Of a stretch of DNA of 64,000 bases, positions 8,758 to 44,900 are shown piece by piece. The notes beneath the pieces are model-generated. The model had not been told where the DNA came from and made no database searches. It saw only the letters and a list, made by a program, of their open reading frames with translations. The position numbers and the translations under genes were made by a program. Every line of letters begins with the position of its first letter. The stretch's first letter is position 1. Source of the stretch: an uncultured Candidatus Poseidoniales archaeon (GTDB lineage: Archaea; Thermoplasmatota; Poseidoniia; Poseidoniales; Thalassarchaeaceae); contig CACGHY010000002.1 of the NCBI GenBank assembly GCA_902573085.1, positions 4,925 through 68,924 on the forward strand, given 5' to 3'.

Positions 8758-8961
8758 AAAAAAACCATGCTTTATCGCAGTTATGACAGCATTTTTCCCG
8801 AAAATTTTGGTCCGAGAAAAAAAACAGCAACGATTTTGGAGCGTTTTTGCCTTTTTCATCCCGATCGGGCAACCCTGACAGCCCTGACAGAAAAAAACCC
8901 GGAAATTGTCCGCCGAGCGTATGCGGTTAGGCCGGGGGGCTTCGCAGAAAAAAAAAAAAAA
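8758..8961 (+). repeat. Four phased poly(A) tracts, each preceded by G (G-A7, G-A8, G-A7, G-A14)
   Basis: A-runs at 8758-8764, 8817-8824, 8891-8897 and 8948-8961, with start-to-start spacing of 59, 74 and 57 bp. Confidence 0.8.
8873..8890 (+). repeat. Perfect tandem 9-mer CCCTGACAG x2, abutting the third A-tract
   Basis: 8873-8881 and 8882-8890 are identical, followed by AAAAAAA. Confidence 0.85.
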
Positions 8962-9045
8962 TTCCATGCCTAATTTTCGCATGGCTCCGGCGACCCGGAG
9001 GGGAGCCGGGGGGCCACGCATTGGCGGAGGGGGCGGCGGGCTGTA

Positions 9046-9268
9046 CGCCCACCACCCGATGCGCTCCGATGGCATCCGATACGGGGCGATGGGGCATCCC
9101 ACACACGCCCACCACATCCACCCGCATCCACCCACATCAACGGCCATCGGCGGGGGGCCGGGGAGGAGGCGTGGAGGGGGCATGGAGCGGGCCTATCGCC
9201 ACCTCCCACCACCCACCATCGGCCACTGTCTATCAATGCCCATCGGAGGCTATCGCCACGCCCACCAC
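9046..9268 (+). repeat. C-rich iterons: CGCCCACCAC x3 perfect plus one single-mismatch copy; a 19-20 nt unit CTATCGCCAC-[C/-]-[T/G]CCCACCAC occurs twice
   Basis: The perfect 10-mer occurs at 9046-9055, 9106-9115 and 9259-9268, with CTCCCACCAC at 9203-9212. CTATCGCCAC occurs at 9193-9202 and 9250-9259. A degenerate CCCCACCAC lies at 9534-9542. Confidence 0.8.
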
Positions 9269-9431
9269 CGACCTCCCACATCGCCCGCCATCGACCCCCA
9301 TTTTTTCCGGATCGCCCGCCACATCACACGCCGTCGCGCTGATGGTGGTGGGATGACCGGAGAGGGGTGCGGACGGGGGTTAGCCACAGCCCGCTTCGGA
9401 TGGTGCAATTGGCATACAAATAGCAGACAAT

Positions 9432-9457
9432 TAGACACTAGACTAGACAACTTAGAC
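9432..9457 (+). repeat. Cluster of four TAGAC pentamers
   Basis: TAGAC at 9432, 9439, 9444 and 9453, within ttagacactagactagacaacttagact. Confidence 0.7.
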
Positions 9458-9751
9458 TATACAACAGAAGACTGACCTGAGAATACGTTTCGGAGGGTAG
9501 GGGTATCGACCTTTGTCTGTTGTCTCCCATCCACCCCACCACGCCCCCAGAACCGTTGCACCAAGGCCCTGTTTCGGTGTCTGTGGATAGAAGACATGGG
9601 TGTGTCGGATGTCTGCTGAAATCGCACCACGTCTAGCCCCGATCTGGTCCCGTCCAAAACCGAGCCACTCACACGGGGGAAAGGGTGGGACTCAAATAGT
9701 CCCCCCACTACCGAGACACTACCGGCAATGACCGGACGGAAGTGAAAAAGT

Positions 9752-12700
9752 ATGAAGAATGCAATGAGAACAGCAATGATGACCGCCCTTCTGGTAGTGC
9801 TAATCAGCACCCAGAACGTAGTCACCGAGGAGACAGCAATCCCCTCGGCAGACAGCGAGATGAACACCGAGATTGCAATTGTCGGAGGCCTCTATGACCT
9901 AGCCCCGAAGAGTCGTCTTAGGCCATCGGCCAGACAGGCCCAGAACCACAACCGGAGGGTACAGATTCTCCGAGACATGGGACTCATCCAGAGCCGATCC
10001 AATGGATGGCCTAGATTAGCCGTTCTAGGGCTTGTTCTAGCCCTTGGACTACTACACCCTGCTCTGGGTCTAGTCGGAGCCGTAGGAGCGGTTCTGGAGG
10101 CCCCAGAGACTACCATGGAGCATGACCCCACCAACCCAGAGACTATCGAGAAGATGAAGGCAGACCACGCCGCTAGGCCAGAGTGGTTGAAGGCCATCAA
10201 GGACAAGGCCCTAGACCAGATGTGGGAAACCTTCGGACCCCTCCTAGAGGGTAGCCTCCCATCATGGCAGAAGCCTTGGAAGATGGTCATGAATGGCATA
10301 GAATACACCGTCAGCAGACCAGTAAACGCCCTGACCGGGAGAGCATACAAGGGGGCCAATATCTTCACCCTATCAGGCCGATTCTATCCGGTCTGGGCCA
10401 CCCAGAAGCAGGTCAATCAGATAGCCCGGAAACTCAAGATTGAGTTGGTCTGGGACGAGGATTACCAGACCGATTACAAGGAGAACCCCGGCTCATACAT
10501 GGTCGATGTGGATGGAGAGATGAAGCCCATAATCAAGGACTCATTTGAGAGAAATGGAGAGCAGAGAGCGATCTGGGTTCCATTCCTCAAGACCTTCTGG
10601 GTCGAGGCCAAGGACGCCTCTGGAAACGTGATAATGGACCCCAAGACCGGGAAGGCCAAGAAGAAGCGAATCCAGAAGGCCCAGAAGGGTCTAGGAGGCA
10701 TGACAGTCGGTAAGGAGGCATTGGTCTGGAACATCGAGGACATCAACCTTCCAACAGACCGTGTGCTAGAGATTGTCCCAGACTTTGAGAACACTCAACC
10801 CAAGACTCCGGTCAAGGAGGATATACCCGTAGTCGAAGGGGCCAAGACTCTTGTCGATTCAATCCTGAATAACCTCACAGGTCTGAGATACAAAGAGGCC
10901 CCAAACAGGGCCTTCTATTCCCCTGCTCAGGACTACATATCCATGCCCCCGGCAGGGACGTTCAAGGACAACGGTGTAACGGCTCTGGAGGCCTTCGCGG
11001 CAACCCTAGCCCATGAGGCCGCTCATGCCACAGGACATCGCCTGAGACTCGCTAGAGCCATGGGAAATCCATTCGGGTCCAAGGGCTATGCGAGGGAAGA
11101 GTTGGTCGCTGAATTGGCCGCTATGATGGTAATTAGAGCATGGGGCATGAATGACGTAGCCCCACAGCACGGAGCATACCTGAAATCATGGGCCACCAAG
11201 TATGTCGGTTCACCCGATCCGGAGAATCCCGATGTGTGGATGGACTCATGCCGTGGAGTGTTGAAGGAGGCCGCTAACGCCTCTGAGTGGATTCTCTCTG
11301 GAATGCCAGAGTGGTTCAAGGGAGCCAAGACCACCGAGGGCCAAGAGATTGAGGAGGAGAAGCCCATGCCCGCTAACGCGGCTTCCATGGACATCTCAGA
11401 CCTGCCTTCTGGGTATCTATTCAGAGCGATGGCACAGGACAACGGGGGGGGCAGAGATGCCCCCTCCCAATGTTGCTCTGGATGCTCCGATGACTCTGGA
11501 GAAACCATCACGATTGAGTGGAATATCAACACCCTGAATGCCCCCGGCTTTGAGAAGATGGCAAAGAGAATCCAGAGGGCATTTGACCGCCGTGGATTGA
11601 CCTTTGAGTATGAGGTCAAGGATGCCGTCTGGGTCACTGAGATGCGCTCCCTCTATGGTGTCGCCGCCGATGCCGCCAGAGCGCGAGGTGATCCAACCGA
11701 GGTCGAATTCAGAGTCATGAGAACCCCTGTCTCTGTGACCCATTCTCCGCTCACTGACAAGGGATACGAGGCCATGGCTACCCTAGTGCCATTTGACCCC
11801 TCTGTGACGCCTCTGACGGACACAGAGATGCTCATCAGACCCATACCCACCACAGAGGAGAATGAGGACGATAGGAACCTTTGGATTAGCGAGCAATTGG
11901 CTAAGAGATACGGCCATGGAAATGCGATCGCATATGACCCAACAGTCTGTGACCATTGTGACCAGAGAAAGAGCAATCGAAAGAAACTGGTTCTGGTCCG
12001 AGATACCAACAACGCCGATGCTGATGCTCTGGTGATTGGTTCGTCCTGCCTCTATGACTACACTGGAGTGGACCCCGATATGCTAGAGAAACTGTTCACC
12101 ATCAGGGCGAATCACAGCCCCTACGAGGGCATGGAAACCGACCCTCTATCATGGAGGAAAAACATTGCCAGAATGGAGATAACCGAGTTCGTGGATTTGG
12201 TGGGAGAGAATGCCGCTATCTTCGGTTCATACAGGAGAGGTCTAGGAGGCACGGCCATGGGCCAGTGGATGGGATACACAGTCAAGGAGTATATCTCTGA
12301 TTTCGATAGGTGGGGGAAGCCGATTGACACGACCGCCGCTTACAGGATTGTCTCCAATCCAAGGCCCAAGTACGACAACCCGAACGGACCTCAGATTATC
12401 GAGAGGCCACCGACTTACGAGGCAGTCCATGTAGGGGGCATCAGGAAGTGGGTTCTGGATGCTCTTGAGGCCTCGGTAAAGGAGAACCAGACCGACACCT
12501 TCGGTCGCACCCTAGCGACCGTCCAGAGAGCCGGATATGTGACTTACAAGACAGCCAATTTTGTGGCCGGTTCGTCCTCCAGATATTGGAAGGAGACAAC
12601 ATCCTACACCAAGGAAATCAGGGACGCCGCGAAGTCCACAGATCTGACTGCCTTCCCTGCTCAGGCAGGGACCAAGTGGACCGGGAATCTGGTTGCGACC

Positions 12701-15700
12701 ATTGCCGATATTCGATGGTTCGACGATCGGTTCAATCCGGGCGTCCAGAAGGCCATTGTGACGTTCGTGACCAATGAGCATAGGCTCAAGACGTTCTCTA
12801 GTGCCAAGTGGACCCAGAGCATCAAGAAGGGCCAACAAGTGACCATCACCGGATTCACGGCCAAGAAGACCGAGGACTACCAAGGACAAGGTAGTCTGGT
12901 GGTGACATACCTAAACTTCGGGGAGGCCCCTGCGGCCTCCCTGAACGCTGTTGGAGCCTTCGGATTGGTTCCGGCACTACTAGACCCCTCTATGGTGTCT
13001 ATCGCCGCTCTGGGAGCGGCTATGGTAGTGGGAGTCGTAACTGCCGGTCGGAATGATGATGATGAGGGCATTTTTAGTTACACCACAATCAATTTTGAAC
13101 AGGCCCACCAATGGTTGGATAACCTCCCTCCATGGATTGAGCCATCCCATGCCGAGGTCTATGACAACCACCAGAGAATGTATGCGAAGCATGGTCTGGC
13201 TTGCATGATGTTTGTCTTCTGGAACCGGGGCGTTTCGACCACCAGATACCCGGATGGAATCATTCAGCACGTCGTAGTTCAAGACCCAGATTTTGAGGCT
13301 GACACACAGCGTCCTCATTGGCATGGCATTCAGGACTTGTGGATTCACGCATGGACCGATTGGGATTTGGTCTTGTATGAACAGGGATGGATGAACATTG
13401 ACGAGAAGGGCAACCGGATTACTGTGGAGGAGTCTAAGTTGCGAGCCGTTGGAGCCATGGGATTCATCCCGGCACTACTAGACCCATCCATGGCCTCTAT
13501 GGTCGCTCTAGGCGTCGCTATGGTGGTCGGGGTAGTCGGTAGGACCAAGACGACGGAGGAGCCAACCTCATGCGTCCCTGCTTGCATAGCAGAGGAATAC
13601 GATCCAGAAGGCCCCTCCTTCGGCAACGATAGCGGAGAGGTCAGGGGTCAGCACTTCGATACCTGCCACAACCTAGAGGAGATGGTGAGCGAGTGCGTGG
13701 GTGAAGACCCATACACCGGACGACTAGAGCATATCCACTACTCCAGAATCAAGTGCAACTGCCTTGAGATAGCCATGGATTGGTATGAGGAGTCCGAGTT
13801 TGTCAGAGGGGTTCTGAAAGACGAGGGAGTCGGCCCATTGACCAATGGCGGACACTTAGCAGAGAGTAGTATAGTCGCTGATTCGTATGAGGACTTGGAG
13901 CGAATGAAGCACCCTGAACGCTTCGATATGTTCGGAGATAGGATTGAGGAAATAGACCCCGGCTTGCCTAACGCGGATGAGAAATTGCTTCAATGCAAAT
14001 CGTGCGGTGCATGGTCAATAATGACGCCATTCACAGACGCCGATGGAGAACCCAATCTGGTATGCGAGGCTCTGGATGAGGATGAGGTTGAATGCGGACA
14101 CATCTATTGGGGCATGGGGGCCTTCTCTCTGCTTCCGGCACTACTAGACCCTAGCCTGACCACTCTCGTGGCTCTGGGCGTGGCTATGGTAGCAGGAACG
14201 GTCCGCCTAAGCGATTTGGACAAGAGGAAAATCCCCTTTGAAACGGAGGGGGTCAATGTCCAGACATTGAAGCAGGGTGTGTCCCCACGGCAAGAAGCAG
14301 GACGGGTCTGGAAGACCATGCTAACGGGAGGAGAGCAGGAGATTCTGGATGGACATCTCTCCGACTACATCACAATCCGAAACGGGGGGTCTTCTCGCTA
14401 TGCAATCAGCAGATGCTCGTTCATGGATACTACTCTGACTCTGGCCGCATCGGTCGAGGAGCATAATGATGAAAGAGCAGTCTTCCGTGGTTGCAAGGAA
14501 TTCAGCCTGAGAGCGTATCTGGTATCGGAACATAGGAGGAAATACGATCGCATCACCACTGATGTTGCGACTGTCAATTTCAGCCTTAAAGTGAAGGATG
14601 TCGATGCTGACGGTGACGAGGTATATCGCCATAGTGACCCGGATTACAACCTAGAGGATGTCGTGGATAGGGCTGTAATGGTGACAACCGGACTAAGCGA
14701 GATGAAGATTGATGTCGATAGCACATGGAGGTCGAACAATGTAGTTACGGTGGACGCGAAATTGGTCGGTCTGGTGAGCAAGTTGAACGACATTGTGAGT
14801 GACAATCTGTATGAGGCATTCGGACTCAAGGAGGACATGGAGAAGGACACCATAGCGGTGTCATCCCCGGACGGAAAGGTCACAGCGAGCAACCCGGACA
14901 ATTGGCTATACAGAGCCTTCACCACGCCATGGGTTCTCTGTGGTGCATCGGACGTTTCTGACCTCGCGGAGGAGGCTTACGAGGCATGGGAGAGCCTGAA
15001 ACAAGCAAAGGAGTTCCACAAGGTCACAGAGGCTTCTCAGAAGGCCCTAGACACCATAGAGAGGTATGGGGGCCTCCCGGTCGAGAAGGACGCCCCAGAG
15101 GCGGCATGGGAGAAACTATCGGCCAGTAAGATTGAGACTCTTACTGAGGACTTGGAATTGACCCGAAACAATTGGGGAGACAGCAGGATGACTGATGATG
15201 TGCAGAGGGCCATCAAGGGCAACAAACACACAGGAGCATTGGCTTACATTACAAGAAAGGCAAACCGCAGGTGGTCCGATGCTATCAAGAAGTCAGGATC
15301 AGTCAGACTGCTGAAAACCTTCTTCGATAGAGACAACATTCTGGATAGGGCCAAGGAGGACTTTGCAGAGGCCATCAAGGCATACGTCAAGACCTGTGAG
15401 GAGAAAGAGGTTTGTTGGACGGAGGCAATTGTCCAACAAGGACGGTTCCAGAGTATGATGGGTCACTTCCGAGTGATGCTAGAGAATGACTTCTCCGAAC
15501 CCATCATGAGAATCTGGGCTAATGGGAGATACGATTCTCCTGTCGATGCTAGAATCTGCCGAGTCGGATTCATGTGGAATCTTGAACCAACGACGATTGA
15601 CATATTTGAGGATTGTTCGCCTGATACTATGTGGCAGGATAGGGCATTCGACTCTGACTCTGATAGTGAACACTTGAGAGTCGCTTATCGTGTCTTTGAG

Positions 15701-16027
15701 GCGAACCTCATTGAAAAGGGGCTGTTAAAGAGAACCGATAGCGGTGGCGGTGTCTCTGTCGTGTATGACGGAGAAACGCTGTCGTCGTCCGACGCCCATG
15801 CCATAGAGGATGCATTGGGAGACATGAGGAGAACGACGAGATTCATGAGTGAACATCTCATTGCTCTCCATGACTTCCAGAGCGATGCCAAGAGTGCGAG
15901 TTTTGGTGCGATGACCGACAATATCAGGGACGAAGATGCCATCCCTGACTTCATACAGGGGAAGGTTGTAACCAAGTTCCGAGACATCATGGACGACAGA
16001 CTGCCGACTGAGGAGGTGGAAGCATGA
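9752..16027 (+). CDS. Giant polyvalent protein (2091 aa): hydrophobic N-terminus, ArdC-like ssDNA-binding N-domain plus HExxH zincin domain, then about 1600 aa of uncharacterised modules separated by hydrophobic PALLDPS segments
   Basis: Single uninterrupted ORF. The start is preceded by GGAAGTGAAAAA (9738-9749). Internal motifs are listed in the sub-features, and the stop overlaps the next ATG (ATGA). Confidence 0.8.
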   Translation: MKNAMRTAMMTALLVVLISTQNVVTEETAIPSADSEMNTEIAIVGGLYDLAPKSRLRPSARQAQNHNRRVQILRDMGLIQSRSNGWPRLAVLGLVLALGLLHPALGLVGAVGAVLEAPETTMEHDPTNPETIEKMKADHAARPEWLKAIKDKALDQMWETFGPLLEGSLPSWQKPWKMVMNGIEYTVSRPVNALTGRAYKGANIFTLSGRFYPVWATQKQVNQIARKLKIELVWDEDYQTDYKENPGSYMVDVDGEMKPIIKDSFERNGEQRAIWVPFLKTFWVEAKDASGNVIMDPKTGKAKKKRIQKAQKGLGGMTVGKEALVWNIEDINLPTDRVLEIVPDFENTQPKTPVKEDIPVVEGAKTLVDSILNNLTGLRYKEAPNRAFYSPAQDYISMPPAGTFKDNGVTALEAFAATLAHEAAHATGHRLRLARAMGNPFGSKGYAREELVAELAAMMVIRAWGMNDVAPQHGAYLKSWATKYVGSPDPENPDVWMDSCRGVLKEAANASEWILSGMPEWFKGAKTTEGQEIEEEKPMPANAASMDISDLPSGYLFRAMAQDNGGGRDAPSQCCSGCSDDSGETITIEWNINTLNAPGFEKMAKRIQRAFDRRGLTFEYEVKDAVWVTEMRSLYGVAADAARARGDPTEVEFRVMRTPVSVTHSPLTDKGYEAMATLVPFDPSVTPLTDTEMLIRPIPTTEENEDDRNLWISEQLAKRYGHGNAIAYDPTVCDHCDQRKSNRKKLVLVRDTNNADADALVIGSSCLYDYTGVDPDMLEKLFTIRANHSPYEGMETDPLSWRKNIARMEITEFVDLVGENAAIFGSYRRGLGGTAMGQWMGYTVKEYISDFDRWGKPIDTTAAYRIVSNPRPKYDNPNGPQIIERPPTYEAVHVGGIRKWVLDALEASVKENQTDTFGRTLATVQRAGYVTYKTANFVAGSSSRYWKETTSYTKEIRDAAKSTDLTAFPAQAGTKWTGNLVATIADIRWFDDRFNPGVQKAIVTFVTNEHRLKTFSSAKWTQSIKKGQQVTITGFTAKKTEDYQGQGSLVVTYLNFGEAPAASLNAVGAFGLVPALLDPSMVSIAALGAAMVVGVVTAGRNDDDEGIFSYTTINFEQAHQWLDNLPPWIEPSHAEVYDNHQRMYAKHGLACMMFVFWNRGVSTTRYPDGIIQHVVVQDPDFEADTQRPHWHGIQDLWIHAWTDWDLVLYEQGWMNIDEKGNRITVEESKLRAVGAMGFIPALLDPSMASMVALGVAMVVGVVGRTKTTEEPTSCVPACIAEEYDPEGPSFGNDSGEVRGQHFDTCHNLEEMVSECVGEDPYTGRLEHIHYSRIKCNCLEIAMDWYEESEFVRGVLKDEGVGPLTNGGHLAESSIVADSYEDLERMKHPERFDMFGDRIEEIDPGLPNADEKLLQCKSCGAWSIMTPFTDADGEPNLVCEALDEDEVECGHIYWGMGAFSLLPALLDPSLTTLVALGVAMVAGTVRLSDLDKRKIPFETEGVNVQTLKQGVSPRQEAGRVWKTMLTGGEQEILDGHLSDYITIRNGGSSRYAISRCSFMDTTLTLAASVEEHNDERAVFRGCKEFSLRAYLVSEHRRKYDRITTDVATVNFSLKVKDVDADGDEVYRHSDPDYNLEDVVDRAVMVTTGLSEMKIDVDSTWRSNNVVTVDAKLVGLVSKLNDIVSDNLYEAFGLKEDMEKDTIAVSSPDGKVTASNPDNWLYRAFTTPWVLCGASDVSDLAEEAYEAWESLKQAKEFHKVTEASQKALDTIERYGGLPVEKDAPEAAWEKLSASKIETLTEDLELTRNNWGDSRMTDDVQRAIKGNKHTGALAYITRKANRRWSDAIKKSGSVRLLKTFFDRDNILDRAKEDFAEAIKAYVKTCEEKEVCWTEAIVQQGRFQSMMGHFRVMLENDFSEPIMRIWANGRYDSPVDARICRVGFMWNLEPTTIDIFEDCSPDTMWQDRAFDSDSDSEHLRVAYRVFEANLIEKGLLKRTDSGGGVSVVYDGETLSSSDAHAIEDALGDMRRTTRFMSEHLIALHDFQSDAKSASFGAMTDNIRDEDAIPDFIQGKVVTKFRDIMDDRLPTEEVEA
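10013..10102 (+). repeat. Degenerate N-terminal copy of the hydrophobic module (RLAVLGLVLALGLLHPALGLVGAVGAVLEA)
   Basis: The DNA ggactactacaccct resembles ggcactactagaccc of the three strong copies. It is a hydrophobic segment of about 30 aa. Confidence 0.4.
10169..11191 (+). other. ArdC-like antirestriction module (N-terminal ssDNA-binding domain plus zincin metalloprotease-like domain)
   Basis: LPSWQKPWKM...ALTGRAYKGANIFTL...VWATQKQV fits the ArdC-N/DUF1738 pattern. TLAHEAAHATGHRLRLAR...GYAREELVAELAAMMV (HEAAH at 11012-11026) fits the ArdC C-terminal pattern. Confidence 0.75.
12947..13051 (+). repeat. PALLDPS hydrophobic module, copy 1 (aa 1066-1100)
   Basis: AVGAFGLVPALLDPSMVSIAALGAAMVVGVVTAGR, followed by NDDDDE. 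Contains the 17-mer CCGGCACTACTAGACCC at 12971-12987. Confidence 0.85.
13445..13543 (+). repeat. PALLDPS hydrophobic module, copy 2 (aa 1232-1264)
   Basis: AVGAMGFIPALLDPSMASMVALGVAMVVGVVGR, followed by TKTTEE. The same 17-mer lies at 13469-13485. Confidence 0.85.
14111..14206 (+). repeat. PALLDPS hydrophobic module, copy 3 (aa 1454-1485)
   Basis: GMGAFSLLPALLDPSLTTLVALGVAMVAGTVR, followed by LSDLDKRK. The same 17-mer lies at 14135-14151. Confidence 0.85.
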
Positions 16028-17716: not shown

Positions 17717-17839
17717 ATGGCGACCAGTCCAGAGCAAGCAGAGGCAAATTGGGAGTTAATCAAGGGCATGGCCGCGTGGGGAGGAGTCGCTTTGCTGTGG
17801 CTCTATCTCTATGTCAAAGTCAAGGAAATCCTGAGATAA
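17717..17839 (+). CDS. 40-aa predicted membrane micro-protein
   Basis: MATSPEQAEANWELIKGMAAWGGVALLWLYLYVKVKEILR. GAGGT lies just upstream of the ATG. It is the 3' part of the otherwise implausible track ORF 17327..17839. Confidence 0.3.
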   Translation: MATSPEQAEANWELIKGMAAWGGVALLWLYLYVKVKEILR

Positions 17840-17880
17840 GGTCGGCGGGATTAAATGTCAATCCTGTCAGCACCGACGTT

Positions 17881-19464
17881 ATGAACAACGTGCCACAAGG
17901 CAACCAACCGATATTCATAATGAAGGAGGGGACGGAGCGAATCAGGGGAAAGCCCGCCCAGAGCAACAACATCGCGGCGGCTAAGGCCGTCGCTGAAACC
18001 GTGAGATCCACGCTCGGTCCAGAAGGAGCCGACAAGATGTTAGTGGACCCATCAGGAGATGTGGTCATCACCAACGACGGAGCCACGATATTGAACAGGC
18101 TAGACGTTGAACACCCTGCCGCGAAACTCATCATAGAGGTATCCGAAACCCAAGAGCAGGAGGCTCACGATGGAACGACATCAGCCGCCGTTCTGGTGGG
18201 AGCCATACTAGAACGTGCGGAGGATTTGCTAGACGACAGCATACACCAGACAATCATATGCAGGGGCTTCAAGGAGGCTCATGACTTAGCCAAGGACGAG
18301 TTAGCCACATTGGGATGGGATGCCACAGAGGAGGACTTGACTAGCGTCGCCATGACTAGCCTGACCGGGAAGAGTGCAGAAGGAGCGGCAGAGGTAATCT
18401 CAGCAATGTGCGTCGAGGCCGTCCAGACAATAGGTGATGAGGGTACGTTAGATGACATCATGGTAGCCTCATTCTCTGGTGGGACGTATGATGAGTCCGC
18501 ATTGATTCATGGTGTCCTCATAGAGAAGGAGCGAGCGCACAGCGAGATGCCCGCGAGCCTGAACGACGCTCATGTCCTACTGGTCACAGAGGAGATTGGC
18601 ATCAAGGAGTCGAAGTTCGACACGACGCTCAACATCAACAACCCAGATCAGGTCAAGGACTTCTTGGCTCAAGAGGAGGAGATGCTCAAGGGGATGTGCG
18701 CGGAGATAATATCAACAGGTGCTAATGCGGTGTTCTGCCAGAAGGAGGTGGATGACCTCGCAATGCACTATCTAGCGAAGGCCGGGATCTTCTGCCTAAA
18801 GCGCGTGAAGAAGAGCAGGATGGAGGCACTCAAGAAGGCAACGGGCGCGAGGTTCGTCAATGGCTTGGAGGATATAGACCCGGAGGACATGGGTCTGGCT
18901 TCTAGTATTGAGGAGGTCAAGTTCGGAGACTATCATTGCACGGTCCTGAAATCAGATAGGACGACAAGCGTTACTGCCGTGCTTCGTGGTAGTACCGGCC
19001 ACTCCCTAGATGAGATAGAGAGAGCATGGGACGACGCCATGGGTGTGGTTTTCCTGAGTGCTAGGGCCAAGAAATTGGTTGCAGGAGGTGGAGGAGTGTA
19101 TGCCCACCTAGCCCGACATCTGAGGTTGAAGGCCGCTACCATGGGAGACAGAAAGGGAATGGCAATCTCCGCTTTCAGCGACGCTCTGGAATCAATACCG
19201 AAGACTCTGGCGGAGAACGCCGGAATCGATCCGGTCGATGCAGTCCTCGCGCTACGCAAGGCAGAGAGCGCGGACTACGGGATAAACACACAAGGGGATG
19301 TGGTGAACATGAGGGATGCGAAGGTCATAGAGCCACACAAGGTAGTGTGGACAGCACTTGGCTCCGCTACCGAAGCCGCCATCATGATTCTAAGAATAGA
19401 CGACGTGATTAGTATGAAGGCAGGTGACGGGGGTATGCCACCAATGCCGGGGATGATGGGTTGA
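17881..19464 (+). CDS. ths: Group II chaperonin (thermosome/CCT family), 527 aa
   Basis: Starting at MNNVPQGNQPIFIMKEGTER: LGPEGADKMLV, VITNDGATIL, VEHPAAKLIIE and HDGTTSAAVL are signature motifs. The Gly/Met/Pro tail GDGGMPPMPGMMG is typical of thermosome C-termini. I chose ATG 17881 rather than the alternative start at 17749 used by the track. Confidence 0.9.
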   Translation: MNNVPQGNQPIFIMKEGTERIRGKPAQSNNIAAAKAVAETVRSTLGPEGADKMLVDPSGDVVITNDGATILNRLDVEHPAAKLIIEVSETQEQEAHDGTTSAAVLVGAILERAEDLLDDSIHQTIICRGFKEAHDLAKDELATLGWDATEEDLTSVAMTSLTGKSAEGAAEVISAMCVEAVQTIGDEGTLDDIMVASFSGGTYDESALIHGVLIEKERAHSEMPASLNDAHVLLVTEEIGIKESKFDTTLNINNPDQVKDFLAQEEEMLKGMCAEIISTGANAVFCQKEVDDLAMHYLAKAGIFCLKRVKKSRMEALKKATGARFVNGLEDIDPEDMGLASSIEEVKFGDYHCTVLKSDRTTSVTAVLRGSTGHSLDEIERAWDDAMGVVFLSARAKKLVAGGGGVYAHLARHLRLKAATMGDRKGMAISAFSDALESIPKTLAENAGIDPVDAVLALRKAESADYGINTQGDVVNMRDAKVIEPHKVVWTALGSATEAAIMILRIDDVISMKAGDGGMPPMPGMMG

Positions 19465-38558: not shown

Positions 38559-38903
38559 TCAACGCACCTCCATCAGGACATCCACGCGAACCTCGTTCGT
38601 GCTGTTCTTGTCTATGGGTAGGAAGGTGGCTCGGTAGGCAGGAGTGTCTAGTGCGGTATCACCATGCAGGGCCACCTCCTTGATGCTCTGGGAGGATGTC
38701 TGTTGCGTGTCGAAGTTAGCGGAGATTGCGATAGTCCTGTCGTCTATCTTGGTGACTTGGGGGGTGACTGTGATCTGTGGCGTCCCCGCTCCCCCGTCCC
38801 TGCTCGACGCATCCCCTCCGTTGGAACCGAGGGTCATGCGAGTGACTAGACTAGAGAGATGATCGGTCAAAGCGGACTTCAAGGAATCTAGCACCGGCAT
38901 CAT
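38559..38903 (-). CDS. Small tail-module protein (114 aa)
   Basis: Track ORF whose start overlaps the stop of the 2717-aa gene (ATGA-type). Confidence 0.55.
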   Translation of the reverse strand: MMPVLDSLKSALTDHLSSLVTRMTLGSNGGDASSRDGGAGTPQITVTPQVTKIDDRTIAISANFDTQQTSSQSIKEVALHGDTALDTPAYRATFLPIDKNSTNEVRVDVLMEVR

Positions 38904-41900
38904 TTCACCTCGTAATACAGGCTCTTGCTCGTGCCGATGGCCCGCCCTCGCTTGTTCCCGTCACGCACACCGATTTTGCCCATCCCATTAGTGTGTTTCG
39001 CCCCTATAATGAATCCTGTATTGCTCACGCTACGCACAAATACCTTGTGGACTGCAACCACATTGATGCCGCTTGACAATGACACTTCTGCTACATCGAC
39101 CACCTTACCCGCCGCATCGTCTAATGGACTGGCGTTACCTGATACTGCTTGTAGGTCGGACAGTATGCCCTCTATGCCCTTGTCATACTGTGCCACTATG
39201 AAATCGCTAGTGGATTGGATGTAGTTGTGAGTCGCTTCAAAGACCATGTATTCTCCACGGAGGCCATGCATGGGCAGGTCGATGTTGATTATCTCACCGG
39301 GCTGAACCATGGATGCTTTGATGGCTCCGCTAATTGTTATGAGAGGTGCGCTGTTCTCGGATCGTGACAGTATGGACTTGGCGAGTTTCAATGCCTCGCT
39401 GTTGGTCTTGAGTCCGGGTATCTCCTGTCTCAATGTCCTGACTAGGTTGCTACTTGCTCCCTTGCTTGCCTCCTTCTTCATCCTCTCTAAGTCCTTTACG
39501 ACGACAAAGACCCTTTCGTTCTGGGCTAGTTGGTCGCCCACAATCACTATCTCATTTGGAGAGTCAAACATCTTGCTCGCAGTTACACTACGGATTGCAC
39601 TACCCATACCGAAGGTCATGCCCTTGTTATTGAATACGTTCGATGAGTAAACCATGGCTCCGTTCTTCTCATTGATTAGTTGCTTGCCATCTATCTGACT
39701 CAGATTGCGTATGACCTCCATGACATTCAGGCCCTTCGTCTTGCGGGCGGTGAAGATAGCGGAGTGGTCGGACACGAGGCGGAGGGAGGGGTGGGCGTCG
39801 AGGGTGGATGAGATTTCCCTGTCCTTCCCTAGCAAGGCACTCGTCGGAGTCACGTTGAAGCCCGCTAGGTCTGAGCCGGAGTCATCGAGTAGCATCATCG
39901 CGGCGTCGCTAGTCCTGACGCCTATGTATCCCTGCTGTCCCATTAGGATTGGACCCTGTGACAGTCCGAAGTCTGTGAGGCTGTCAGCCTCTATGTTCCT
40001 GAACAGCAAGAAGGTGGATAACTCGTCCTTCTCCACACCGGCAATCCTCAGAGCCGTATTCTTTTGGTCGAACAGGTAGGGTGGGAAGTCGGTGTCGGTG
40101 ACTTCCTTGCCGTCAAATCTGATTGCGGTGATGGAGGGGGATGATGTCGATACGAGAGCCGAGGTCTTGCCGTTGTCTATGATTAGTGGCCTCTGGTTAA
40201 TCATCATGAAGTCCGTCGGGTCATACTCCAACAGGCCTCTATAACCGAGAGTGGTCTGCTTGACCGCATCATTGGTGACATCGTACCTGTGCCATGTCGC
40301 GGACACCTGCTTGGCTAGGGTGATTGCATTGTCGATGTATGTCGGAGACACCAGATGAGGCGTGGTGAGCGATCTTATGTCGGAGATGGCAGATGGGCTA
40401 GTCACCGTCGTGTATCTGAGTATCTGTCCCGTCAAGTCCGATACCCCGGTGCTGTTGGTTATCCCTGTGAGTTTGTTCTTGCTCTTGCCTGTGTATGTCA
40501 CCTTGCCCTTGCCCACTATGAACAGAGTGCCAGAGGCGGGCAACAGGGATGCGTCCTCAAGGAACACGTTATTGTTGGAACCCGCGTGTTTCGTGACTTT
40601 GAACTGTGGATAAAGTCTCATGGTCGAGTCCATGTGGGTGTGCGTCACCGCATCTGGTGTAGTCTGCTTCACGAAGTCACCGCTAATGCCTGTCCCCTCT
40701 GCTCTGTACCTTGTCTCTGACTGGTGCAGGGACTCGCCTCCACCCGGATGCGTAGTCTGTGAGTATCGTGCTTCTATCTCTGGGTTGAACTCTCCATCGA
40801 CAGTCTTGCGAACAGCATCCGATTTGAAGAATTGAAGCATGGATGCACTAGGTAGCAGGTGGAACACCGCATCGTGTTCATTGGCATCGGGATATGTGAT
40901 TTGGAATATTCCCTCGGCGGTCGATATGAATTTCAAGTCACCTAGATTCCTCTCCATGTTTGCCTCAAAGACACCATACCTGTTGTCTCTGGTGAATGCC
41001 TGATGCTCAAGGTCAGCATCTCCGTATGATGATCTAGCACCCATCAACCAACCGTCTTGCTGTATGTCAGAAGCAAAGCCGAAGAGTTTCAATGGGCGAA
41101 CGGGTCTTACGAAGTAGTCAATGGACTTCCTTCTCTGGTTAGATGTGGTGGCGTTTCCATCCGTGCCAAACACGTCCGTGGTCAATGTTCCTTCCTCTGT
41201 CCTGTTGAGATACGTCTTCCTCAGAATGTACGTCCCACCCCATGGTGGCAAATCAGCAGAGCCACGGACAGCCCAATAGTCCATGCCATGAGTCTTGGAT
41301 GCAATTAGCAAATCAGGATTAGTGGGTAACGATACAGTCGCTACCACGACAGCACTCGATCCTCCTTCATTGACAACGATGGTCGGCGTGGTTGTGTAGC
41401 CTGAACCTCCCGCGCCTATGCTCACCGATACCAACGGCCCTGTCGAACCCAATACTGCTGTTGCCGTCTGTGCAGTACCTCCTCCCTTCAAGTGAGTCGT
41501 AGGCAGGGTTATCGCAGGGGCAGAAGTGTATCCGCTTCCTCCGTTGTTACCAATCGTCACGGCTGTTATAGTGCCTGTCTGAGTATGCCCACCTGCCAAT
41601 GAAGCCGTCAGCGATTCTCCTGTCCCTCCCGGAGCAGAGACAGATGGCGCAGAGGTGTATCCATCCCCTTGATTATTGACCGTGACTGATACTATCGTGC
41701 CGTTGGTTGTTGCCGCGCTTATGTCTGCTACTACGTTTCCTGCATTGTTAAAGGAAATAGTGTTTCCACCGGCATATGCCGATTGTCCGTTCAAGAACAA
41801 CTGAACTGTTTTTGTCCCTCCTGATGTGAATCCTGCACCGGCATTGGTTATGTTGTAGGCGTTGCCTCCCGCACGAACGTAATATTTGCTACCGACTTTT

Positions 41901-44900
41901 TCATAACCTATCCTGACAGTCGCAGGTGTCTGTGCGGCAGGACTTGTCTGATTGATTGTCATAGTAAGAGTGCTTGCGGGTATTGTCACCGCGCCACCCA
42001 ATACCGCCACCGCGCTTTGGGGGTTGGGATTCAAATCGAAAACGGTACTACCACTTGTAAAGGTGAAAGCACGACCATGACTAGACTCTGATATTGTAAA
42101 GGTGTGAGTACCTACGCTACCGGATGTATTCTTTCCAGAGTAAGTGATGAAAGCAGTTGCAATACCATCTTGCAAATACAATGTTCCCGATGAAGGCCAT
42201 GCCGAGATGTCTTCATTGACGGCTAAGGTTGAGCCGAATGAGTAATCTGAACGGAGCGGAGCGTTAGATGTGGGAGTATGATCTCCATCCAAAGTCAGAG
42301 TGTTCACGTTCGTGCCTGATATGTCTATCTCATGCTCTTGACTACTTGGATTGGAGATTGACACACCGAATCCAATAGTTGCGGTAGCGGTGGCTTGGAC
42401 TTGATTGTGGCTCGCGTTCGGTGAGTCTATTGTTAGACTGACCGTGCTTGAGTTGAAACCCGATCCTCCGTTGCCAATCGAGATGGTGTTGCTAATTGGT
42501 CTGCCATCGTTGGTAATCGTGTATGTAGCAGTCGCGTTACCCGCAATCGTGCATGAGTGCGTCCCCACTCCGCTCACTAGGTATTGACCATTGGAGCCTG
42601 ATACGGTAGCACTAGCGACGTTGGTGCTAGTGGTGTATGTCCCTGAGAATCCTGTCCCGCCACCCCCACCTGTGAACCCTAGTGTGCCACTTGGGAATTG
42701 ATAGCCAGAACCTGCGTTGCTTATCGAGAGTGAAGTTACCGCCGCACCACCATCGCCCTTGTCATCCTTGGTATCTGGACTCCATGTGGGTAGTGAGTAT
42801 GGATTTGAGATGGTTTGACTCGTAGGGCTTCCGGGGTTTATGGTCATGTTATGCGTACCAAACTTGGAGTTTGAGACAAAGGATGGCAAGACAGGGAAGT
42901 GCTGACCGACAATCAAATCGCTATGCAGAGAAGCGGCTTTCGTTGATGTTATCACATACTCGATATTCTTGTTGTTCTGCCTCTCGTTCTCAGTCTGTAT
43001 GACGAATCCTAGACGTGGTTCGGTTCTGGATTGCACTTGTCTATGATCGCTTATCTCGGACAACGGGATGCCTAGTATGTTGTTTATTGTCGAGTTGGTG
43101 TGAGTCCCTATTCCCCATCCAGTCGTGGGGTAGTGGATGTTTGCTGTGCTTGAGTGGTCGATGGCAGAGGCGTTGGTGTGTAGCGCATTCCCCTTGAGAT
43201 GATGGAAGCCACCTGACACTCCGAACTGCGTGGAACTAACCGCAGACTCGGAATCACCTTGGGAGTATGAGTTTGAGCCTGTGTATTGAACTAAGTCGAT
43301 GAAAGGGTCTGAGCCTTTATTCATCGGTATTGCCTTCAAAGGCTCATTTGCTCCCTTGTCCGGGTCGGTCTTGGGTTCCCACATCCCGGCAGGTAACGCT
43401 GTCGGTTTCACAAGACCCGCAGACTCGACCCCTAGCGTCAGCCCTATCCCTATTGGTTGCTCTGAGGTGAGTGGCTTGGTGTTGCTTCTCCTTATCACGC
43501 TTGAGAATGGGGTTGATTCTGCTGTGTGTGCAGTCGTAATCAGTCCTATTGGCAGACTTCTCTCGACCCCGTTGTAGTTCGTGGGGAATCTCCAAGATGA
43601 ACCGTAGGTAGTTGCATCGGGTATCTTGTTTACCGAGTCGTGAACTCCTCCATCGAATCTAGCACTACCGAAGACGGGTTGCAGGTTGGTATCTGCCTCA
43701 GTAGGATCTCCTGATAGCATATTCAGAGCATCAGAACTTGTTCGGAAACCCCACGCTCTGACAGGTAGTCTTCTGCTGAAATCATATGCGACCATATTGT
43801 CCACGACAATCTCATATTCTGTGAACGATACACTATCTGAATCAGTATCATATGATATGGTTGCAGATAGTTTCTCTGGTTGTATGCCATCCCCTATCCC
43901 CTCACCCCGACTATATCTTATGCGATCATATTCTTTGGTGAGTCTCAGAGTACCTTGTGCTTCCCTATGTGTGGTGTGTCCCATATATACTGCGTTAGCA
44001 GAGCGCATACCATCCACATTCTTCTGTCCCGATGCGTTCAATGCATTGTATCCGAAGTTCTGCAACCATTGTGTGATGTATAGTCTCTCAAACGGCAGAG
44101 CGTTCTCTGCTTGTGCAGTAGTGGTGGGGTTGGAGTGGTTCCGTAGGTACAGGCTTCTTGTGGGTGGGTAGTTTAGGGAACGAGGCGTCCCTGCCTCCCT
44201 GTATCTGAACGTCAAATAGTGTTCACGACTGGTTCCGAAGAGGGCCGGATGGCTGTATTCAGCAAGCCAATGACATAGGAATGCATCAGGGACGCACCCG
44301 GTCCCGGTGTTGTCCTTGTCGAGTAGTGCAAAATCACCAAAATCTGTGTTTATACCGGCGTTATCGTTGGCAGGGTTAGCCGTTCGTGCCGCCATGTTGA
44401 GATATTCTGGGTCGTGACAGAGCAGGGGAGGGACAGTTCCTAGTTCAGTACCAGAACGTGGTACTAAGACGCCTTCTTCCAATCCCAATGAGAAATAATC
44501 ACTCGATCCTGTGTCGATTACAGGGGCAATTGGGCGTCCTGCGGAGAGTGTGTAGTCATCAATCAAAAACCCGTTCAGTATAATTTCACTAGACGTGTTA
44601 TAGCGACTTCCACCAGTCAAAGCGTTGGCAAAAGTGAGCCTAGTTGGACCCGAAGTTGTGGCATCTTTGCTCGGTGCGGCCCTTCTGACGAGGTGTCCTG
44701 CACCGTCTGTCTCAGTCTGCTCCTGTCCCGGTGCTACGAGATAGTCCAAATCCGTTCTGGGAGTGACTCCTGAGTGAGCGGATTGCTTGATGTCTGGCAA
44801 TCTGAAACCATCTAGTTCGGCTAGTGGGAGTCCATCAGATGCAGAGGAGCCTGTTGCTCTGTACCCTGACTCCACCTTCGTGTCCAGAGAGTCCAACTCA

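Follow-up and report, generated by a model that had tools for sequence, protein, structure and literature searches.

The window, which is the whole stretch of 64,000 nucleotides that was analysed, encodes a giant protein in which hydrophobic modules separate large cassettes. The features of its gene are listed below, with residue numbers referring to the encoded protein.

9752–16027, + strand: giant open reading frame encoding the polyvalent protein (2091 aa); first gene of a rightward operon, after a divergent intergenic gap
9752–9826, + strand: N-terminal signal-peptide-like hydrophobic segment, aa 1–25 (read by eye)
10013–10102, + strand: 'degenerate module', aa 88–117, 30 hydrophobic residues around a central H-P
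10217–10435, + strand: ArdC-N ssDNA-binding domain, aa 156–228 (Pfam PF08401, E = 9.8e-8)
10877–11194, + strand: MPTase-PolyVal zincin-like metallopeptidase, aa 376–481 (Pfam PF18818, E = 6e-29)
11408–11467, + strand: second junction motif, non-hydrophobic, SGYLFRAM...GGGRDAPS, aa 553–572
11471–12934, + strand: cassette B, aa 574–1061, with the Cys motif CDHC...NRKKLV...GSSC and a predicted C-terminal OB-fold-like β-barrel
12947–13051, + strand: module M1, aa 1066–1100, AVGAFGLVPALLDPSMVSIAALGAAMVVGVVTAGR
13052–13444, + strand: cassette C, aa 1101–1231, without homologue in any search
13445–13543, + strand: module M2, aa 1232–1264, AVGAMGFIPALLDPSMASMVALGVAMVVGVVGR
13544–14110, + strand: cassette D, aa 1265–1453, Cys-rich
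14111–14206, + strand: module M3, aa 1454–1485, GMGAFSLLPALLDPSLTTLVALGVAMVAGTVR
14207–16024, + strand: cassette E, aa 1486–2091, without assigned function

Domains and viral context of the giant protein

Both conserved domains in the N-terminal part of the protein score above their Pfam cutoffs (32.7 bits against 22.6 for PF08401 and 101 bits against 27.5 for PF18818). The ArdC-N region also matches PHROG 7245, 'anti-restriction protein', with an E value of 8e-39, and the HEAAH (HExxH) motif of the metallopeptidase is intact at 11012–11026. With these hallmark domains, several unrelated domains in one polypeptide and a gene carried by an invasive element, the giant protein qualifies as a polyvalent protein that joins ArdC-N to an MPTase-PolyVal zincin, and it comes from a tailed virus that encodes a thermosome. 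Besides ArdC-N and the zincin it comprises a tentative OB-like fold along with three cassettes without assigned fold, and relatives add a UvrD helicase; the MPTase is present in the window protein and in relatives P0001–P0005. The first 25 residues run, as read by eye, from basic residues through a 13-aa hydrophobic core to V-x-[T/S/A] and acidic residues, and a start of this kind is kept, also by eye, in P0001–P0004 and P0020. A signal-peptide-like N-terminus is puzzling here, given that the domains that can be recognised are DNA binders.

Cassette B matches PHROG 2319, and its homologues form the C-terminal cassette of P0001–P0003 and, in P0004, the cassette behind the first module. Its C-terminal barrel (about aa 963–1061, nt 12638–12934) has a pLDDT of 70–83 in the AF2 model, of which the barrel alone was used, with caution, and the top Foldseek matches of the barrel are RPA/SSB OB folds (E = 1e-3 to 1e-2). 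The OB-like fold predicted for the end of cassette B is tentative because the mean pLDDT of the whole model is 47 and the Foldseek E value is about 1e-3. Cassette C, which lacks a homologue, is therefore private to the window genome. The N-terminal part of cassette D matches P0017, and its last 64 aa correspond to a mini-cassette in P0002. Cassette E has homologues of ~30% identity behind the first module in P0001 and behind the second in P0003, and it has no Pfam, PHROG or PDB-sequence match; searches of PDB sequences with the cassette B profile and with the cassette E profile matched nothing.

A tailed virus is indicated by Phage_tube_2 and tail-fibre PHROG matches in the window, where most open reading frames have no Pfam match and neither tandem repeats nor tRNAs were found. 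The giant gene heads an early/replication-side operon, which includes a helicase, the thermosome, and PDDEXK and ERCC4 nucleases, and the tail module is about 21 kb away; this placement is not decisive either way for packaging. This position at the head of the operon is kept in the loci of the relatives, whose contigs are syntenic and reach 58–84 kb. In the window, as in five of six loci from relatives, the thermosome lies 2–6 kb downstream of the giant gene; the P0001 contig stops about 0.4 kb past the gene, and the P0020 locus shows no thermosome within ~2.4 kb of downstream sequence. A scan of genome contigs with a single thermosome sequence gave no match, whereas an alignment-based scan succeeded and returned Poseidoniales thermosomes as the closest cellular ones. 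The tailed viruses of this family probably infect Poseidoniales.

Neither the module region nor the thermosome has a relative in the GenBank phage set, where the ArdC/MPTase part alone matched, distantly (<42% identity), in bacterial phages. IMG/VR and JGI contigs searched with the cassette-B alignment gave no relatives. The sole IMG/VR 'relative' of the module region (L001) is a bacterial phage terminase locus, and the match was rejected as spurious. A word-index protein search with the module alignment or the C-terminal half of the protein returned no match although relatives exist, which reflects a limit of the index and is no sign of absence; the exhaustive profile search described below is the valid test.

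The protein belongs with the ArdC-N plus MPTase-PolyVal class of polyvalent proteins (Iyer, Burroughs, Anand, de Souza and Aravind, 2017, J Bacteriol, PMC5512222), both domains being above the Pfam thresholds, and it shares with that class the many unrelated cassettes per polypeptide, a tailed virus of the terminase/portal type, helicase cassettes in relatives and a highly mosaic domain content. It differs in its archaeal host domain, in its signal-peptide-like N-terminus, in a gene placed in an early/replication-side operon and not beside head genes, and in its hydrophobic separators, of which PMC5512222 makes no mention and which are absent from the eight distant polyvalent proteins examined. 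According to the same work, polyvalent proteins are scarce in archaea and nearly all examples longer than 1000 aa are bacterial. Polyvalent proteins are regarded as multi-tool kits with which invading DNA counters host defences, and the present family is a clear case from archaeal viruses, at 2000–3200 aa, where large archaeal examples had been described as nearly absent.

Architecture and conservation of the modules

The first-pass annotation had described three PALLDPS modules and a degenerate N-terminal copy. All four positions and translations are in frame with the open reading frame at 9752–16027 and match exactly, and the segments that the three modules delimit measure about 948, 131, 189 and 606 aa, in agreement with the rounded sizes given there. 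The 17-nt identity ascribed to the three copies was likewise recovered, the 17-mer CCGGCACTACTAGACCC having copies at 12971, 13469 and 14135 and no further copy on the two strands of the window, and a six-frame motif search of the window found the module in no other open reading frame. The PALLDPS 7-mer occurs three times, whereas in 997 of 1000 residue shuffles the longest k-mer present in three copies had at most four residues; of the other three shuffles, two yielded a 5-mer and one an overlapping V7 run of a single residue. The repeat is not a product of chance. At the DNA level, M1–M3 form a 92-nt repeat of 68–78% identity in which similarity ends at the module edges. Many of the identical residues are encoded by different codons; M1, for instance, has 20 residues but only seven codons in common with module 719 of P0001. 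The modules are therefore conserved as protein sequence, and recent duplication is not the whole explanation.

The consensus begins with an arm, A-x-G-A-F-x-h-h-P-A-L-L, of 10–13 small or hydrophobic residues, which is followed by Asp-Pro-Ser/Thr and then by 19–21 uncharged Ala/Val/Leu/Gly/Met residues, usually closed by Lys or Arg. The proposed three-part layout is thereby upheld: the short signature leads into a ~20-residue uncharged helix with K/R within three residues in about 20 of the 26 modules, the basic part being mostly a single K/R followed by acidic residues, with no cluster. The helix arms, which are without charged residues apart from the D at their start, score 1.6–2.1 on the Kyte-Doolittle scale (19-residue window), and a simple sum on the Hessa 2005 scale is marginal at +0.1 to above +2.5 kcal/mol, so that membrane insertion is not assured. 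The AF2 model of M1-C-M2 (single sequence, pLDDT 33), of which the secondary-structure pattern alone was used, shows a helix, a break at L-D and a helix from P, and Asp-Pro-Ser/Thr most likely caps and starts the helix.

Modules occur three to six times each in P0001–P0004, P0014 and P0020, and Asp-Pro is invariant in the 18 modules aligned, whereas the more distant P0005 has two degenerate copies, SLFDIS and SLDVFS, without Pro. In the degenerate N-terminal module, the central H-P becomes N-P or F-P in relatives. Comparison of module number in related genomes had been suggested at the outset, and the close relatives carry three to six; homologues lacking the modules, or conserving them poorly, had been expected to count against the idea, and the relatives instead conserve them better than cassettes B and E. 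Mean pairwise identity of the 32-aa core is 63% among the window protein and P0001–P0003, against about 30% for those two cassettes. The modules are under purifying selection at the amino-acid level. Their location is strictly inter-domain: the last cassette never bears a module, and the C-termini of the window protein and of P0001–P0005 are module-free. The one possible exception to junction-only placement is P0019, perhaps a fragment produced by assembly, whose 255-aa open reading frame bears two modules.

Outside the family, the eight distant ArdC-N/MPTase polyvalent proteins contain no 19-aa window with a Kyte-Doolittle score above 1.6. An exhaustive profile search of 1.84e9 representative proteins gave eight matches, all within the viral polyvalent family, although diverged single-copy signals below about 35 bits may escape such a search. 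The idea that PALLDPS might be found in host proteins was not borne out, as this search returned family members only. No description of such internal repeated modules was found in Iyer et al. 2017 (PMC5512222), nor in term searches of work on magroviruses and Poseidoniales viruses (PMC5434244, PMC11706807) and of the wider full-text literature. Judged from these sequence searches, the module appears to be private to one family of polyvalent proteins, which thus gains a defined separator, an invariant Asp-Pro with a membrane-type helix, that is absent from other polyvalent proteins.

Recombination at the modules

When P0001 is compared with P0003, hydrophobic modules make up 5.9% of the length yet contain five of the six internal block edges (binomial P about 4e-6). 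Each of the two proteins has one extra cassette-plus-module unit that is absent from the other, and their ArdC alleles, at 55% nucleotide identity, lie between flanks that are 91–97% identical. The 97% nucleotide identity stops just past the segment homologous to the degenerate N-terminal module, which is therefore also a mosaic boundary. In the window protein, a 61-nt stretch of M2 is 98% identical to module 2 of P0003 with unrelated flanks, and aa 1411–1476 show 93% nucleotide identity to P0002, compared with 73% in the ArdC region. This 93% block stops at DP+10 inside M3, a chimeric module with a left half that matches P0002 module 1408 and a right half (GTVRL) that matches P0002 module 1320. 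Each half of a chimeric module follows its neighbouring cassette, the left half the one upstream and the right half the one downstream, and the order of cassettes varies among genomes. The modules are crossover points for the insertion, deletion, reordering and exchange of cassette-plus-module units, probably through homologous or unequal recombination between modules; the earlier suggestion that they are cassette boundaries subject to recombination is directly supported by the breakpoints inside them. The family thus provides direct comparative evidence that the separator is a site of cassette exchange.

An extra DNA-level constraint on the modules was rejected, the codon identity at identical residues being 0.60 in modules and 0.60–0.63 in the ArdC region of close relatives. 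The three window copies spell the 17-nt core with identical codons, an agreement that has a chance of about 5e-6 under the codon usage of the gene and suggests local gene conversion; the same core is written with other codons in P0003. Recombination at the modules could be a by-product of their conservation, instead of a selected function.

A comparable arrangement is known from polymorphic toxins, in which the VENN motif of CdiA and the PxxxxDPxGL motif of Rhs proteins border exchangeable cassettes and act as a homology patch for displacement, and the Rhs junction motif, which contains Asp-Pro, is also a site of autoproteolysis. As in those systems, a short conserved peptide stands at the cassette borders and mosaic breakpoints coincide with it. 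The modules described here nevertheless have no sequence similarity to VENN or DPxGL beyond the Asp-Pro dipeptide (full-length Pfam scans found no family that covers them), carry an attached 20-residue uncharged helix and are repeated three to six times per protein, and their cleavage is putative.

Possible roles of the modules

In 22 of the 26 modules, K/R in the C-terminal flank equals or exceeds K/R in the N-terminal flank, and this bias does not alternate across consecutive modules, which often have the same polarity (for example, P0002 modules 1320 and 1408). Between ArdC-N and the OB-like end of cassette B there are no modules in the window protein, one in P0004 and three in P0001–P0003; cassette E is preceded by three modules in the window protein, one in P0001 and two in P0003; and in P0005 the MPTase is separated from the UvrD helicase by exactly one module. 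The lack of charge alternation, together with DNA-binder-like domains zero, one or three modules apart, makes a simple alternating multi-pass topology unlikely. Of the first proposal of repeated membrane anchors, the anchoring itself remains plausible, whereas the form of a simple alternating multi-pass protein does not agree with the charge pattern and module parity.

We favour, with a probability of roughly 0.45, the reading that the modules are family-private, membrane-type junction helices that mark off exchangeable cassettes and serve as recombination joints. Recombination itself is observed in the breakpoints, and the membrane tethering we infer from helix character: the module helices would associate the chain with the host cytoplasmic membrane, which fits the signal-peptide-like N-terminus, and the DNA-handling cassettes (ArdC-N, the OB-like fold and the helicase of relatives) would all be kept on the cytoplasmic side. 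The modules would then be monotopic, hairpin-type or independently inserting anchors, not alternating polytopic passes, and the outcome would be a chain of anti-defence and DNA-handling domains tethered to the membrane and produced from the first gene of the early/replication-side operon. A role as an anchor only is disfavoured, since a pure anchor would be expected at the termini of single-domain proteins too, and the module is essentially confined to junctions. If the separators also anchor or release cassettes, they would represent a new kind of internal protein signal, and, as a natural 'plug-and-play' linker, they could be of practical interest.

Monotopic hairpin anchors with a central proline are known from caveolin, reticulon-type proteins and the 'proline knot' of oleosin. 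The modules resemble them in a hydrophobic stretch of ~30–35 residues, longer than one span and shorter than two, with a turn-forming Pro in the middle, an arrangement that leaves both flanks on one side. They differ in their unequal arms (12 and 20 residues), in the Asp before Pro and in the lack of homology, and they are known from sequence alone. A buried hairpin would not readily accommodate an Asp midway along 33 hydrophobic residues. The alternative of helices buried in a soluble fold was rejected, as the same module occurs beside unrelated, freely swapped cassettes and is therefore not a buried helix of one soluble fold.

Alternatively, the modules may be processing sites, at or near which (or at Asp-Pro) the chain is cut by the MPTase in cis, by another viral or host protease, possibly intramembrane, or through a labile Asp-Pro bond, releasing separate cassettes that might each keep a hydrophobic anchor. 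The same chain carries an MPTase-PolyVal domain whose HExxH is intact, and autoprocessing of polyvalent proteins by domains of this type has been proposed by Iyer et al. 2017 (PMC5512222). A short, sharply conserved LLDP[ST] stands at every junction, the module is confined to junctions and missing from the C-terminal end of the last cassette, and the uniform charge polarity of the modules is easier to account for if the pieces insert independently after cleavage. However, P0020 has three or four modules and no MPTase, and the modules of P0005 lack Pro, so that Asp-Pro chemistry is not universal. The conserved 20-residue uncharged helix would also be superfluous for a protease site, and no natural gene splits at modules occur among the loci examined; we consider processing unlikely.

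In a bolder combination, which we hold to be distinctly unlikely, the modules would be internal 'cut-and-anchor' signals: the chain would be threaded to the membrane via its N-terminal signal and resolved at each LLDP[ST]-helix unit, by the zincin, an intramembrane protease or the Asp-Pro bond, into individually anchored DNA-handling and anti-defence enzymes, with the units doubling as sockets for new cassettes. Membrane-associated polyproteins with their own protease, in which hydrophobic segments delimit the units, are known from eukaryotic positive-strand RNA viruses such as the Flaviviridae. The giant protein is similar in that hydrophobic segments delimit the units of a long chain bearing its own protease domain, its tethering being presumptive; it differs in belonging to an archaeal dsDNA tailed virus, in its putative cleavage and in charge and parity patterns that lend no support to an alternating topology. 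If true, the 'cut-and-anchor' scheme would place a membrane-associated polyprotein strategy, so far one of eukaryotic RNA viruses, in an archaeal dsDNA tailed virus.

An equally doubtful proposal is that the protein is packaged in the capsid and injected, with the modules entering the host membrane from outside and forming or lining a conduit or pulling the cassettes across. Membrane penetration of this kind by N-terminal transmembrane domains is a feature of T6SS Rhs effectors, which offer a parallel, and the arms, rich in Ala, Gly and Val and with small-xxx-small spacings (A-lgv-A-mvv-G), are similar to membrane-active helices that self-associate. Polyvalent proteins of phages are thought to be packaged and injected, those encoded by phages and prophages making up about 35% of the total (PMC5512222). 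Against injection, the gene heads the early/replication-side operon far from the tail module, which already encodes a separate multi-TM protein (54895–56319), and the signal-peptide-like N-terminus suggests insertion in the producing cell.

We regard as highly unlikely an ordinary polytopic membrane protein, with each module as one pass and the cassettes alternating between cytoplasm and exterior. The helix length and Kyte-Doolittle hydropathy suit a membrane span, an N-terminal signal-like segment is present and, in the window protein alone, the K/R counts at TM2, M1, M2 and M3 are readable as alternating. The family-wide K/R bias shows no such alternation, however, and the homologous cassettes B and E would switch sides with module parity; the single module of P0005 would separate the MPTase from the ATP-dependent UvrD helicase, and gain or loss of one cassette unit would flip the topology of everything downstream.

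That the modules are pure linkers, DNA homology patches for cassette shuffling without a role at the protein level, is very improbable: the breakpoints within modules and the codon-identical 17-nt core agree with it, but module codon identity is not above that of the ArdC region, P0003 spells the core with other codons, the divergent P0004, P0020 and P0005 retain the physico-chemical design despite sequence change, and a functionless 33-residue greasy linker would be costly.

The first-pass comparison with PEP-CTERM/PGF-CTERM sorting signals (Haft et al.; NCBIfam) holds for the layout of signature motif, transmembrane-length helix and basic residue(s), to which the N-terminal signal-like peptide adds, and does not extend to membership or action. 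Internal, repeated signals read by a host exosortase or archaeosortase are hardly credible, since no NCBIfam sorting-signal model matches (zero families at E ≤ 10 for the four modules plus the N-terminus, where HMMER filters drop most matches above about 0.1), no protein outside the family carries the module among the representatives searched, and the module is never C-terminal in a full-length member. The recognisable cargo domains handle DNA and are not surface domains, and they would act in the cytoplasm and not be exported. Among the literature matches listed, archaeosortase was not mentioned together with Poseidoniales.

The non-hydrophobic junction motif SGYLFRAM...GGGRDAPS marks a further boundary, as the site homologous to it coincides with a block edge of the P0001/P0003 mosaic. 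A motif akin to it, VVF[HY]RATPDEIE, is present twice in P0003.

The giant protein and its repeated module

The giant protein of the window (WIN) is encoded by a single unbroken ORF of 2091 aa at 9752–16027 on the plus strand, with the following features.

Modules (in frame with the giant ORF), domain matches and cassettes of WIN, with the cassettes delimited by a BLASTP map
10013–10102, plus strand: degenerate module copy, aa 88–117
Up to aa 572: N-terminal hydrophobic region, then ArdC-N/MPTase
aa 156–228, plus strand: ArdC-N domain match
aa 376–481, plus strand: MPTase-PolyVal zincin domain match, HEAAH intact
aa 574–1061: cassette B, between ArdC-N/MPTase and M1
12947–13051, plus strand: module M1, aa 1066–1100
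aa 1101–1231: cassette C, between M1 and M2
13445–13543, plus strand: module M2, aa 1232–1264
aa 1265–1453: cassette D, between M2 and M3
14111–14206, plus strand: module M3, aa 1454–1485
aa 1486–2091: cassette E, after M3

The first-pass annotation had described repeated PALLDPS modules that divide the giant ORF into segments of about 950, 130, 190 and 600 aa; this observation is confirmed, the segment sizes are correct, and all four module coordinate sets are in frame and translate as it had quoted them. The 17-nt identity that it had noted among the modules was likewise recovered, as the 17-mer CCGGCACTACTAGACCC occurs once in each of the three copies, at 12971, 13469 and 14135, and at no fourth site on either strand of the window. 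The heptamer PALLDPS is present in three copies in WIN, and the longest three-copy word was of four residues or fewer in 997 of 1000 shuffles of the protein. As DNA, M1, M2 and M3 form a 92-nt repeat with 68–78% identity, and this likeness stops sharply at the module edges. In a six-frame motif scan of the window, the giant ORF was the only one with the module.

WIN can be assigned to the polyvalent-protein class because it contains both ArdC-N and MPTase-PolyVal, the hallmark pair of these proteins (Iyer et al., 2017; PMC5512222); it is also matched by PHROG 7245, 'anti-restriction protein', with an E value of 8e-39. No homolog of cassette C was found anywhere searched. The end of cassette B (aa ~963–1061; 12638–12934) was modelled as a beta-barrel with a local pLDDT of 70–83, in a model with an overall mean of 47, and its top PDB fold matches in Foldseek were all OB-fold ssDNA binders (an archaeal RPA-related protein, hSSB1 and Sulfolobus SSB) at borderline E values of 1e-3 to 1e-2, which tentatively suggests that these last ~100 residues form an OB-like barrel resembling RPA/SSB.

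Five true relatives (P0001–P0005; 1808–3200 aa) were drawn from assemblies in ENA and Logan, and at least P0001 stems from a Tara Oceans marine metagenome. Homologs lacking the modules, which had been named as evidence against the original description, were not encountered among these five: all of them carry two to six copies, namely three each in P0001, P0002 and P0003, six with LLDPT in P0004, and two diverged copies in P0005 (SLFDIS and SLDVFS), in which the layout is kept and the Pro is lost. Asp-Pro is invariant across 18 aligned modules, with the consensus A-x-G-A-F-x-L-x-P-A-L-L-D-P-S-M-x-T-L-V-A-L-G-x-A-M-V-V-G. The 12 modules of WIN and P0001–P0003 share a 32-aa core with a mean identity of 63%, and in comparisons across this set cassettes B and E reach ~30%. 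Since the same residue is often encoded by another codon (for example, 20 identical residues versus seven identical codons), selection acts on the module at the peptide level.

An exhaustive search of 1.84 billion representative proteins with the module profile gave eight matches (P0001 and P0014–P0020), all of which are members or fragments of the WIN family, and no hydrophobic 19-residue window was found in eight more distant ArdC-N/MPTase polyvalent proteins (1210–3286 aa). The hydrophobic module of the WIN family, absent from these other polyvalent proteins, is thus an innovation confined to this viral clade. Polyvalent proteins are scarce in archaea, those of more than 1000 aa are nearly all bacterial, and the 2017 survey makes no mention of hydrophobic separators (Iyer et al., 2017; PMC5512222). 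The module falls outside all Pfam and NCBIfam families, and no description of an LLDP[ST] junction module was found in the searchable literature; the polyvalent-protein class is already known, whereas this hydrophobic junction module is new.

Among the profile matches, P0019 (L088, 534–1331) is a complete ORF of 255–265 aa on a 2-kb contig, overlapping its neighbour ORFs by about 16 nt; in it two modules enclose a Cys-rich cassette of ~110 aa, with a short tail on the N-terminal side and one of 40 aa at the other end. It could be a true small protein with modules of its own or, alternatively, part of a larger gene that a frameshift has split. P0020 (L089, 6001–13572) comprises 2523 aa, with a signal-like N-terminus, three or four modules and a C-terminal UvrD helicase. 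The UvrD helicase is fused after the last module in P0004, P0005 and P0020, whereas the polyvalent proteins at loci L002, L003 and L005 have no helicase cassette and are followed just downstream by a separate DEAD/ResIII helicase gene.

Modules as recombination joints

The mosaic structure of the relatives gives good support to the modules acting as recombination joints. P0001–P0003 have cassette E behind their first or second module and end in cassette B, and in P0004 cassette B directly follows the first module. P0001 and P0003 share 97% nucleotide identity over aa 1–139, in a block that stops just past the N-terminal 'degenerate module'; their ArdC/MPTase alleles are unrelated (55% nucleotide identity), and three common blocks at ~91% are found after aa 579/530. 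The ArdC-N/MPTase region (P0001 at L004 versus P0003 at L002) is itself an exchangeable cassette, and both proteins contain a single additional cassette-plus-module unit that is missing from the counterpart. Block edges within modules lie at DP+15, DP-3, DP+10 and DP-10 (offsets from Asp-Pro), and of six internal edges, five are located inside hydrophobic modules, whose share of the length is 5.9% (P about 4e-6). The sixth coincides with another junction motif that is not hydrophobic, [FY][FYH]RA[TM]...GGGRDAPS; in WIN this motif follows the MPTase domain (aa 553–572; 11408–11467), and in P0003 it is found at aa about 515–545, with a related copy after the last module (aa 1488–1500).

Similarly, WIN and P0002 share a block (aa 1411–1476) that is 93% identical, compared with 73% in the ArdC region, and that stops at DP+10 inside M3. 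The proposal that cassette boundaries are tied to recombination is thus borne out by both pairs. The modules themselves are chimeric: the left half, HIYWGMGAFSLLPALLDPSLTTLV, moves together with the upstream mini-cassette, and the right halves, GTVRL, GMTKITETEQ and GACVALSMVKAE, move together with the downstream cassettes. Codon identity between genomes is 0.60 in the modules and 0.60–0.63 in the ArdC region of close relatives, which makes it unnecessary to invoke a separate constraint at the DNA level. In the window, the 17-nt core with identical codons has a chance probability of about 5e-6, calculated from codon frequencies, and its codons differ in P0003, which points to local gene conversion among the window modules.

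In evolutionary logic the module is closest to the junction motifs of polymorphic toxins, VENN and Rhs DPxGL, whereas in physical layout it most resembles sorting signals or monotopic hairpin anchors. The recombination role is well supported; a role of the peptide is one that we infer.

Topology and role of the module peptide

None of the 26 modules contains a charged residue in its helix arm; the arm opens with D-P-[S/T], a classic N-cap for a helix in which Pro takes position N1, and K/R follows the arm within three residues in about 20 of the modules. The Kyte–Doolittle hydropathy of the arms is 1.6–2.1, and their Hessa-scale sum (a simple sum) is only marginal. A low-confidence AF2 model (pLDDT 33) placed a helix, a break at L-D and a helix from P in both modules of the construct. 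A buried helix of one soluble fold, which the first-pass annotation had set against its reading, is ruled out because the same module adjoins unrelated, freely exchanged cassettes.

The most economical reading, held with no more than moderate confidence, is that all cassettes would be kept on one side, the cytoplasmic side, with the modules as monotopic, hairpin-like or independently inserting anchors. The conserved signal-peptide-like N-terminus of WIN, P0001–P0004 and P0020 (a hydrophobic core, then V-x-[A/S/T] ahead of acidic residues) fits such same-side anchoring.

Proteolytic processing at the modules is an attractive alternative, given a zincin in cis, a sharp motif at every junction, and modules that are limited to junctions and all of the same polarity. 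However, P0020 bears modules and lacks both ArdC-N and MPTase, so the modules are not tied to the zincin domain; moreover, Pro is missing in P0005, and a protease site would leave the conserved helix unexplained. A role in ejection or penetration is possible if the protein is packaged, although the gene lies outside the structural module, and the tail module has a multi-TM protein gene of its own (54895–56319). Modules acting purely as DNA-level linkers are unlikely, given that the physico-chemical design persists in divergent lineages despite sequence change.

A simple alternating multi-pass topology, in which each module would make one pass and place successive cassettes on alternating sides, is argued against by three tests: from one module to the next, the K/R bias shows no alternation; zero, one or three modules lie between ArdC-N and cassette B, so that homologous cassettes would switch side by parity; and a single module separates the MPTase from the ATP-dependent UvrD helicase in P0005. 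Gain or loss of single units would also flip everything downstream. The likeness to sortase-type sorting signals holds for the layout and fails elsewhere, as the modules are not C-terminal, match no curated model at E<=10, occur on no protein outside the family among the 1.84 billion representatives and adjoin cargo that, where recognisable, is DNA-handling. The biochemical role of the modules is directly testable.

The virus and its gene neighbourhood

A gene for a group II chaperonin (thermosome; 17749–19464, plus strand) lies 1.7 kb downstream of the giant ORF, and the window further contains genes for PD-(D/E)XK and ERCC4 nucleases and, on the opposite arm, for a tail tube protein and proteins resembling tail fibres; the majority of the remaining ORFs lack a Pfam match. 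The closest cellular thermosomes are from Poseidoniales (Marine Group II) MAGs, with 49–53% identity compared with 44–47% for other archaea, and together with the tail genes this indicates a tailed virus whose host is most probably a member of the Poseidoniales. Magroviruses, the described viruses of Poseidoniales, also carry chaperonin genes (PMC5434244). No relative of the module region or of cassette B turned up in the GenBank phage collection, IMG/VR or JGI contigs, and the first of these yielded none of the thermosome either.

In the window and in every relative locus the giant gene heads a rightward operon after a divergent gap, and a thermosome gene follows at a distance of 2–6 kb, both in the window and at five of six relative loci; the P0001 contig ends before its position could be judged. 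The P0020 locus has the same gene position, with no thermosome within the ~2.4 kb of downstream sequence obtained. This conserved linkage raises the idea that the giant hydrophobic-jointed protein might be a client of the chaperonin.

The gap upstream of the giant gene (8872–9751) is G+C-rich (about 56%) and crowded with short C-rich repeats (CCACC, CATCG and ACGCCCACCACC), several of which are spaced 10 nt apart; its only ORFs are spurious and proline-rich, and it may have a regulatory function or serve as an origin. All relative loci have a similar gap ahead of the giant gene.

The tail region contains two more giant ORFs, 38900–47053 (minus strand; 2717 aa) and 47047–53664 (minus strand; 2205 aa), neither of which contains PALLDPS-type modules; the latter has Laminin_G_3 (ConA-like lectin) domains. 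The product of 54895–56319 (minus strand; 474 aa), with four or five strongly hydrophobic segments (Kyte–Doolittle values up to 2.57), is a candidate for a membrane-penetrating or tape-measure-like protein of the tail.
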